DNA of 10,796 nt. Origin: a virus. Its lineage: Duplodnaviria; Heunggongvirae; Uroviricota; Caudoviricetes. A model generated the notes under the pieces. It did no database searches. It was given only the letters and a program-made list of their open reading frames with translations, and had not been told where the DNA came from. Positions 3,969 to 4,562 of this stretch are shown here, in pieces (position 1 is the stretch's first letter; every line of letters starts with the position of its first letter). Both the position numbers and the translations under genes were made by a program. The stretch covers positions 1 through 10,796 of IMG/VR virus record IMGVR_UViG_2690316318_000025; one strand, written 5' to 3'.

Positions 3969-4379
3969 AAAAGAAACATGCCGCAGGCAAGATTAAACAA
4001 AATTTGGTTGTAACACGGCGTATGGCACATGCGTCGTTAGCGGTCTGGGGACGTTAAAGGGGACAATCCACTCCTTGCTCGGGCAAACAAACCAGGTAGC
4101 CGGAATGTGCAAGTCAATGAGGATGCTGATAAGACGCCTAACCAGCGTGGCGATTCGGTTTGACGCCTGGGAAGAGACCAGGGTGCAACGATGAGGGCAT
4201 TTATGGAACCGCGACAAAGTGTGGTGCCGTAACTGGCTAAGTGCTCTCAGCGTTGTGGTAATCCGCGAAATGGCGCGGCGGTAAGTATGGCGGGGTTACT
4301 CTTTCCCCGTTGAGGACACCGGATTGTCAGGTTGACCATACGCCTGAGTGACAACCCCACCACAACAGCCACTGCTTTG

Positions 4380-4425
4380 GCGGTACCAGTTTGTACACTT
4401 GCTTCCAGCTGGTACCGCTCTTTTT
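4380..4425 (+). terminator. Terminator-like hairpin plus T-tract inside the PL leader (overlaps a boxA-like CGCTCTTTTTA)
   Basis: Ten-bp inverted repeat GCGGTACCAG (4380-4389) / CTGGTACCGC (4409-4418) with a 19-nt loop, followed by TCTTTTT (4419-4425). The sequence CGCTCTTTTTA (4417-4427) resembles a nut/rrn boxA element. Confidence 0.4.
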
Positions 4426-4562
4426 ACAAAACAGAGAAGAGCATCACCGGACGACGGGCTCATAACCCAATCCATCCGGGCGGCAGTCACCGCAGGTGTT
4501 CTTCTCTGTTTTGTGGAGAAACCAACCGACCTTGCAGGGTCGATATGATGAGGAGCAGCAAA

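Follow-up and report, generated by a model that had tools for sequence, protein, structure and literature searches.

Many lambdoid prophages, the Stx2c and cdtI toxin phages among them, have no N gene, which raises the question of how their early-left operon is controlled. The DNA examined here is a stretch of 10,796 nucleotides from a tailed phage (Caudoviricetes; IMG/VR record IMGVR_UViG_2690316318_000025, positions 1 to 10,796), hereafter the window. It covers the immunity genes and the early region of a prophage of the lambdoid type that is nearly identical to cdtI, Ayreon, 2H10 and a series of Stx2c-converting phages (97.5-99% identity over 3900-4620). Between the early-left promoter (PL) and yfdP, the first gene of the operon, lies an interval of some 600 bp (3970-4562) that an original prediction, made from the sequence alone, described as GC-rich and devoid of any convincing open reading frame (ORF). 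This description holds: G+C is 0.55 over 4050-4500 against 0.39-0.47 in the flanks, and the ORFs on either strand are only short or overlapping. There is also no conserved reading frame, since the distances between anchor sequences in the 5' half vary across 58 homologues without favouring multiples of three. The claim that no N-like gene lies downstream of PL was likewise borne out, in that a comparison of the plus-strand ORFs from PL to the excisionase gene (9534-9842) with PHROGs returned no antiterminator and no N-like gene.

A sensitive blastn search against phage genomes splits the interval into pieces that each occur on their own in other places, where annotation shows either no gene at all or short hypothetical ORFs only. 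These pieces make up a mosaic, in the order module A, module B, a DicF-type hairpin terminator and module C, with yfdP next, and each of the modules is conserved as a structure and recurs independently in other temperate phages of Enterobacterales. This modularity, with its recurrence in P1, in the Qin prophage and in phiV10-type phages, is something the original prediction had missed. The interval as a whole folds better than shuffled sequences (z -5.8 on the plus strand and -3.7 on the minus strand). A covariance-model search and a comparative alignment had been suggested as checks; the former gave no Rfam match, and the latter uncovered compensatory base changes in modules A, B and C. The reading that we prefer, with a probability of roughly 0.6, is that the PL transcript begins with ~590 untranslated nt, corresponding to the interval, which make up a set of RNA genes in their own right, an RNA cassette organised like a tRNA operon. 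The place of N is filled by conserved RNA modules, the first of which is a directly testable candidate for antitermination.

Module A and its homologues

Module A (~4002-4256, plus strand, as are all modules; delimited by covariation and homologues) is strongly supported, on comparative grounds, as a structured RNA that measures 170-255 nt and contains a pseudoknot. Its predicted fold begins with a hairpin, H1 (4016-4036), followed by a helix, H2 (4041-4048 with 4092-4102), that encloses variable hairpins, and by an invariant segment, GGUAGCCGGAAUGUGCAAG (4095-4113). Downstream of these, the 7-nt loop of hairpin H4 (4133-4147) would form the pseudoknot by pairing of 4139-4142 with 4157-4160, a partner reading GGUG or GGUU, and the module ends with hairpin H5 (4166-4182) and a long closing hairpin, H6 (4185-4199 with 4242-4256), which carries a variable insert. 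We tested H1, H2, H4, the pseudoknot and H5 on 58 non-redundant sequences (alignment A3). Pairing is found in 95.5% of the cells, as opposed to 29-47% when the partners are slid by 1-3 columns, and 12 pairs are altered on both sides, with 154 such cells compared with 49 in shuffled alignments; none of 500 shuffles reached 154. The pseudoknot alternates between C-G, in 50 sequences, and A-U, in eight including the window, and H6 is maintained through several fully compensated variants. The 19-nt single-stranded segment is invariant in all nine phage homologues first aligned, although the wider sets, having been gathered by this very motif, cannot test its invariance. Invariant single-stranded segments of this sort suggest the binding of a conserved host component.

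The invariant 18-mer of module A is found in at least 120 viral contigs and a 19-mer in the genomes of 24 species, every named one of which belongs to Enterobacterales. The genera include Escherichia, Klebsiella, Citrobacter, Enterobacter, Kosakonia, Phytobacter, Kluyvera, Buttiauxella and Erwinia, among others, and two further 19-mer matches are metagenome-bin contigs labelled Bacillota and Oscillospiraceae. Two settings stand out for their tRNA genes. In P1, P7 and SJ46 the homologue is 77-78% identical and starts at most 10 nt past the 3' end of tRNA-Ile2(CAU), upstream of ban, while in phiV10, SPN1S and Klebsiella Uetakevirus-type phages its end coincides with the start of tRNA-Arg(UCU). 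The P1 copy is an unannotated 185-nt core at 71010-71194 (locus 2501-2690), between trnI and ban. In the phage Tyrion, an Enterobacter Uetakevirus, we also observed an int-alpA RNA (RF02996, 44 bits; locus 2598-2662) about 1 kb downstream of module A.

Searched with a sequence profile of the core, the window gave a single match (4016-4185), and no match was obtained in the genome of HK022, at the dicB locus of Qin or at the loci from Evi, SfV and ST64B. No family of Rfam 15 matched module A in the window (E<=10) or in seven homologous loci, and full-text literature searches for the invariant motif returned no paper. Module A therefore appears to be undescribed and without known relative, being outside Rfam and yet present in three unrelated groups of temperate phages, P1 included. 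A specific biochemical role is usual for RNAs this large and this conserved, and we consider module A most likely to be a processed stable RNA and possibly an RNA antiterminator.

Several resemblances to known RNAs were considered and rejected. These were a likeness to RNase P RNA (GGGUAGGCUG, GUGCAACAGAGAGCA), a cobalamin B12 box (GCCACUG) and GGA loops of the CsrB type; the corresponding Rfam models gave no match, and the motifs are either not colinear or sited in variable hairpins. The 3' strand of H6 (4242-4250) reads UGCUCUCAG in the window and UGCUCUUUCC in other phages, and resembles the boxA core UGCUCUUU; being base-paired and co-varying with its partner, this strand probably does not serve as a Nus site.

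The tRNA-like element and the DicF-type hairpin

Module B (4252-4366), delimited by structure and covariation, is predicted to fold into several helices closed by a stem of 7 bp (4252-4258 with 4360-4366). This stem is followed by a 4-nt unpaired spacer and by a 5-bp D-arm-like hairpin, CCGCG-aaatgg-CGCGG, located at 4263-4278 exactly as in the original prediction; a variable hairpin (4291-4309) and a third helix come next. A loop-to-junction pseudoknot would pair GUAUGG (4285-4290) with CCAUAC (4336-4341), and in P1 the same strands read GCAUGG and CCAUGC. In this case 94.8% of the cells are paired, against 36-56% in the slid controls, and nine pairs are altered on both sides, against 2.8 in shuffles, although this support is weaker than that of module A because the diversity of the set is low and the structure was derived from the same sequences. 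The 7-bp terminal stem, the short spacer, the D-arm-like hairpin and a position that is elsewhere held by a real tRNA characterise module B, as modelled, as a tRNA-like element, and its first 20 nt resemble the phiV10-type tRNA-Arg, which occupies the same position after module A. As a tRNA it was found neither by ARAGORN nor, at E<=10, by the Rfam tRNA model.

Homologues of module B were found in phage Evi, in PPompW prophages and in an Actinobacillus phage, as well as in the Qin prophage of E. coli K-12, where it lies between ydfC and dicF, just upstream of dicF (92-93% identity). Any match to the interval is present in 4738 of 5426 complete E. coli genomes, mostly through the module B part. 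In Evi a true DicF (76 bits) directly follows module B, and in P1 a copy of module B overlaps the annotated 'dicF-like region' near Pban and is followed by a terminator-like hairpin of its own. Two other versions, B' in mEp460 and B'' in SfV and ST64B, differ in their interiors but have the terminal stem and the junction sequences in common.

The terminator-like stem-loop with a T-tract that had been proposed at 4380-4425 is real. It belongs to a predicted DicF-type small-RNA module with an intrinsic terminator (4367-4426), delimited by alignment with DicF and by folding, which consists of a CA-rich linker (4367-4378), a stem (4379/4380-4389 with 4409-4418/4419) closed by a 19-nt U/C-rich loop, and a U-tract (4419-4425). 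The 71-nt stretch that contains the hairpin (4360-4430) has a folding free energy of -22.6 kcal/mol (z -3.3), and a scan for consensus terminators missed the hairpin at 4379-4425 only because its loop is 19 nt long. The hairpin and module C together (4377-4562) match SfV, SfII, SfIV and, in part, ST64B, upstream of yfdP homologues. Among 67 variants of module B, the hairpin that follows has at least seven loop versions on stem ends that remain alike.

Compared with DicF of the dicB operon of Qin (RF00039), with which the window shares the upstream module B, the hairpin in the window keeps the UUUGGCGGUA(U/C)CAGUUU start, the GGCGG/CCGCC-type stem and the U-tract, as aligned with Qin and Evi, and like DicF it stands in the middle of a repressor-controlled early-left operon. 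It differs in its loop and in a stem extended to 11-13 bp, and the 5' 19 nt of DicF (UUUCUGGUGACG...) are absent from it. At E<=10 the Rfam DicF model has no match within 3850-4700, whereas its score in phage Evi is 76 bits, and the Qin dicB locus, unlike the window, has no module A. DicF binds Hfq and represses ftsZ and other targets by base pairing. The duplex energy of the hairpin loop in the window with the ftsZ start was no better than that of shuffles, by a method that also failed to separate true DicF from shuffles, and duplex folding with yfdP by the same method was uninformative. In the dicB operon, termination gives DicF its 3' end, and RNase E, by processing the polycistronic transcript, generates the 5' end (PMC5069750). 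Position 4407, at the boundary of loop and stem, is A in the window (CCAGCUGG) and G in nearly all homologues (CCGGCUGG), and the stem is intact. The anti-sRNAs AgvB and AsxR, which were considered on account of the CA-rich linker (4360-4375), were rejected, as they map 3' of PR'.

Transcript evidence is available for a sister locus. E. coli K1 RS218 carries an mEp460-type prophage, and between its cI and yfdP lies sRNA-17, a 193-nt RNA that was mapped by Northern blot and by 5'/3' rapid amplification of cDNA ends (RACE; PMC7719688). We mapped the RACE, Northern and quantitative PCR (qPCR) primers of that study (PMC7719688) onto mEp460 and the window, and this mapping places sRNA-17 on the strand of PL and yfdP. 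Its 5' end, at CGUUGUGG, coincides with the A/B' junction, equivalent to 4251, and its 3' end with the terminator, equivalent to 4424-4425. The fragment that its authors took as the promoter is module A. Their qPCR forward primer lies within module A, and the reverse-transcription PCR/qPCR amplicon extends from the beginning of module A through all of B', which shows that the two are co-transcribed. Module A was not described as an RNA by these authors, nor were the relationships to tRNA and DicF (PMC7719688).

The window resembles the sRNA-17 locus in its location from cI to yfdP, in strand, terminator hairpin and 5' junction, and in the preceding module A, and departs from it in that the 125-nt body B' is replaced by a Qin-type module B. 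The match is limited to the junction and the last ~65 nt; five of the eight primers and probes inside the 193-nt RNA (CGUUGUGGUGAAUGCG... to the terminator) have no match in the window, and a locus of the window type is listed only as 'degenerative sRNA-17' in the supplement of PMC7719688. Termination and the junction-mapped 5' end are thus supported here through homology with a mapped RNA, and the discrete product predicted by homology would span ~4251-4425, about 175 nt comprising module B and the hairpin, in addition to a separate module A of about 250 nt. The prophage small RNA of about 450 nt that had been suggested would in that case survive as to its end near 4425 and not as to its length. 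Module B with its hairpin is a variant within the kind of locus to which DicF and sRNA-17 belong.

The order of module A, a tRNA or tRNA-like element and a DicF-like hairpin terminator recurs as a unit, since the hairpin follows module B, follows tRNA-Arg in phiV10, and, in 71 of 133 non-redundant loci with module A, is located at most 640 nt farther downstream. In phiV10 the order is module A, tRNA-Arg(UCU) and a GGCGG-type hairpin with a U-tract, and throughout the phiV10-type phages a genuine tRNA-Arg(UCU) occupies the place of module B. A co-oriented tRNA abuts module A in 48 of 131 loci; in 29 tRNA-Arg begins at the 3' end of module A, and in 19 tRNA-Ile2(CAU) ends about 10 nt before it. 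The spacers and trailers of tRNA operons (e.g. 3'ETS-leuZ) yield trailer-derived small RNAs that bind Hfq. In phiV10-type phages, likewise, the DicF-like hairpin forms the 3' trailer of tRNA-Arg, and its end is the terminator of the unit, while the window has, in the place of the tRNA, a tRNA-like element that tRNA detectors do not accept. DicF and sRNA-17 appear in this light as members of a larger, loop-variable family of small RNAs situated behind a tRNA or tRNA-like processing element, and such a family suggests how prophages evolve new regulators of host genes. The searchable literature yielded no account of this cassette architecture, nor of a DicF-like family with variable loops that is placed downstream of tRNAs or tRNA-like elements; module B, or put-like leaders in phages of the SfV type, may have been described earlier.

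Two observations concern the layout of these units. The phiV10 unit (locus 1383-2005), flanked by the genes for terminase and portal but encoded on the other strand, comprises a TTGACA, module A, tRNA-Arg(UCU), the GGCGG-type hairpin terminator and a second terminator; the coding sequence PhiV10p04, annotated antisense to the tRNA, is probably spurious. In K-12 Qin (locus ~2690-2720) and at many other loci DicF is followed by GUGAUG(C/U)GGUGAAUGCGGCUCAGCGCACGCGG, the start of a B''-type module, which is the one that precedes the window-type hairpin in SfV and ST64B. Since a B''-type start follows DicF in Qin-type operons, the modules form arrays (B, DicF, B'', and so on).

Processing of the transcript and rival explanations

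In the scheme that we propose, RNA polymerase starting at PL would make module A, module B and the hairpin in turn, and many transcripts would stop at the U-tract (4419-4425), which would set their 3' ends. The precursor would then be cut in the manner of a tRNA-operon transcript. A cut of the RNase P type 5' of the tRNA or tRNA-like unit would free module A as a stable RNA of about 250 nt, its 3' end locked by H6, while module B with the hairpin (~175 nt), or the hairpin alone after an RNase E cut, would become a DicF-like small RNA whose U/C-rich loop may serve as the target-pairing region. Transcripts that read through would carry module C and the early-left genes, for which the dicB operon, with the DicF terminator in its middle, offers a precedent, and module C would probably be cut by RNase III and in this way control how stable the yfdP mRNA is or how well it is translated. 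Both the enzymes of processing and any function of module A are inferred.

A number of points weigh against this cassette reading. RNase P cleavage is a conjecture, since neither ARAGORN nor the Rfam tRNA model recognises module B. In P1, module A has no H6 and ban follows directly, so the picture of an excised stable RNA may fail in some phages, and the function of module A is putative throughout. The transcript evidence comes from a sister variant, the body of sRNA-17 being B' and not the module B of the window, and the RACE of sRNA-17 did not separate primary from processed 5' ends. Deletion of sRNA-17 raised yfdP about 100-fold (PMC7719688), which fits the loss of a terminator, but judging from the orientation that the primers imply this rise may instead be a polar effect of the resistance cassette.

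One may also consider that module A acts in cis, as a protein-independent processive antiterminator similar in function, though not in sequence, to the put sites of HK022, which would carry polymerase past the hairpin at 4379-4425 and past later terminators as far as xis, ~5.6 kb downstream. We regard this as unlikely, though it is the main rival. In many N-less lambdoid prophages module A lies directly after PL, downstream of cI-like repressors of several immunity types and at the site of nutL/N or putL. The operon in the window has no N-like gene, its first gene is preceded by a strong terminator, and a weaker hairpin follows yfdQ. Like module A, putL and putR are folded RNAs, putL standing right after PL in an N-less lambdoid phage that encodes no partner protein nearby. 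Put RNA acts on the zinc-binding domain of the RNA polymerase beta' subunit and so suppresses termination. The lambda arrangement differs, having an Arg-rich N gene with boxA and boxB, while the window has no antiterminator ORF through xis and its boxA-like string lacks conservation. Between the phiV10 cassette and the next gene stand two terminators in tandem, with no promoter-like site between them. In SfV, whose cI is also 675 nt long and whose PL region is near-identical, the place of module A is taken by a different leader with a weakly put-like CAGGAUGA, a leader common to ST64B. Put-type mechanisms have been suspected by other authors in the N-less relatives LLS and 2H10 (PMC12315714), and put RNA stays on polymerase without tethering (PMC9378689), so that a downstream RNase P cut would not exclude an antiterminator. 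However, module A has no likeness to put in sequence or architecture, put being ~70 nt long with two stem-loops and module A 170-255 nt with at least six helices and a pseudoknot. Homology with put is not supported: a blastn comparison of the window with the complete HK022 genome (word size 7) returned nothing in 3970-4562, and the profile had no match in HK022; putL and putR were also aligned with related leaders. While put occurs after both PL and PR, the early-right promoter, each phage has a single copy of module A and none on the PR side, the window itself including 3 kb of the PR operon, and module A, unlike put, is also found in non-lambdoid phages beside tRNA genes. In addition, the Qin dicB operon reads through the DicF terminator without any module A, the P1 copy lies 2.3 kb into the ban operon, past the terminator-like hairpin of the dicF-like region, and in phiV10-type phages module A heads a small, seemingly self-contained RNA operon that ends in terminators. 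A broader conjecture, which we hold to be similarly doubtful, is that module A represents a new class of large structured phage RNA acting on the host transcription or RNA-processing machinery, for example an RNA-only antiterminator unrelated to put that replaces N at the PL of N-less lambdoid prophages and sits unannotated in P1 between trnI and ban, the DicF-like hairpins then being diversified small RNAs with interchangeable loops, produced from a tRNA-style processing cassette.

An alternative in which no module acts as an RNA itself takes the interval for an ordinary long, structured 5' untranslated region or attenuator of yfdP that blocks Rho loading and 5'-end-dependent decay and throttles early-left expression. 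This would agree with the strong folding of the whole leader, with module C adjoining the ribosome-binding site, and with P1, where module A would form the 5' end of the ban mRNA once tRNA-Ile is excised. Yet modules A and B occur at loci with unrelated downstream genes, the products of the phiV10 unit are RNAs only, and a discrete RNA was detected at the sister locus; moreover, a 19-nt segment invariant in nine homologues and a pseudoknot kept by compensatory change exceed what a passive stabiliser needs. We find this explanation quite improbable. Far more so is the proposal that the interval is the remnant of a decayed N-like or other coding gene, or that a boxA/Nus-dependent site operates at 4416-4426. 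Shadow ORFs do exist, some of them annotated as hypothetical proteins, but there is no conserved frame and no Pfam match, conservation tracks base pairing, and a decayed N gene is rejected on the covariation of modules A and B and on insertions and deletions that ignore codon phase. The boxA-like CGCTCTTTTTA noted in the original prediction is present and overlaps the hairpin, one base away from the position given (4416-4426 rather than 4417-4427). It consists of the 3' stem and U-tract of the terminator and is not kept in SfV or ST64B, the homologous SfV hairpin reading GTCCTTTTT, which leaves little room for antitermination through boxA and Nus factors.

The leader that replaces module A is conserved between SfV (locus ~985-1075) and ST64B (locus ~1240-1330), whose immunity differs. 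It lies right after the promoter, runs AACAGGCAGGACGCCCACGAAGUAGCCGCC...CAGGAUGAUUCG and weakly resembles HK022 putL and putR around the motif mentioned above; it may be a put-like antiterminator.

Module C, the start of yfdP and the immunity region

Module C (4426-4514, plus strand) is a predicted long hairpin with a branched tip and a 20-bp uninterrupted stem (4426-4445 with 4495-4514; -46.2 kcal/mol, z -6.7). It is kept upstream of the yfdP homologues in SfV, SfII, SfIV and ST64B, with a compensatory change from G-C to A-U in ST64B, and is placed between the terminator and the region where translation of yfdP starts, with its ribosome-binding site. As modelled it looks like a double-stranded substrate of the RNase III type. 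The leader of lambda N carries RNase III sites, and by analogy module C is probably a processing or stability element. RNase III sites are also carried by the dicB operon (PMC5069750). The initiation region of yfdP that follows (4515-4565, plus strand) has a hairpin at 4527-4542, a Shine-Dalgarno sequence GAGGAG at 4550-4555 and an ATG at 4563. The start is ambiguous, the in-frame ATG at 4545 being annotated in Ayreon and that at 4563 in mEp460, and we favour 4563 because of the GAGGAG.

Upstream, the PL-like promoter of the original prediction was confirmed as a sigma-70 promoter at 3935-3962 on the plus strand, with -35 TTGACA (3935-3940), a 16-nt spacer and -10 CATAAT (3957-3962), matching the consensus at 11 of 12 positions; the record of the nearly identical phage Ayreon has a promoter annotated at the equivalent place. 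Transcription should start near 3969-3970. The short 5' leader (3970-4001, plus strand) is confined to this immunity type and has no significant fold (z -0.05), and likeness to heteroimmune phages starts at 3996-4002. The promoter is preceded by the gene of a cI-like S24 repressor (3222-3896), which ends before its terminator at 3908-3925. The early-left operon runs rightward through yfdP-like (4563; phrog_204, E 1e-49), a yfdQ-like DUF2303 gene, a YfdR-like 5'-nucleotidase, a DNA methyltransferase, an exonuclease and the excisionase. A 74-aa minus-strand ORF at 3993-4217 had no match in a Pfam scan, and the minus-strand ORFs annotated in mEp460 and Ayreon are treated here as spurious.

Searches with ARAGORN returned no tRNA or tmRNA in the window, and Rfam 15, applied to the whole window at gathering thresholds and to 3850-4700 at E<=10, returned nothing within the interval. 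Sub-threshold matches to STnc370 and STnc50 (22-24 bits) on the minus strand at 3898-3971, over the cI terminator and PL, most likely reflect a bidirectional terminator hairpin only. The sole real Rfam matches of the window are both on the PR side, where a C4 antisense RNA (82 bits) lies beside an isrK Hfq-binding RNA (64 bits) at 1791-1979 on the minus strand of the PR-side operon. They constitute an antirepressor control module of the P1/P7 immI type or the Gifsy isrK type within a lambdoid immunity region. The pair is located inside or next to a 278-aa ORF of the Ash family (1503-2339), and the same pair is found in mEp460.

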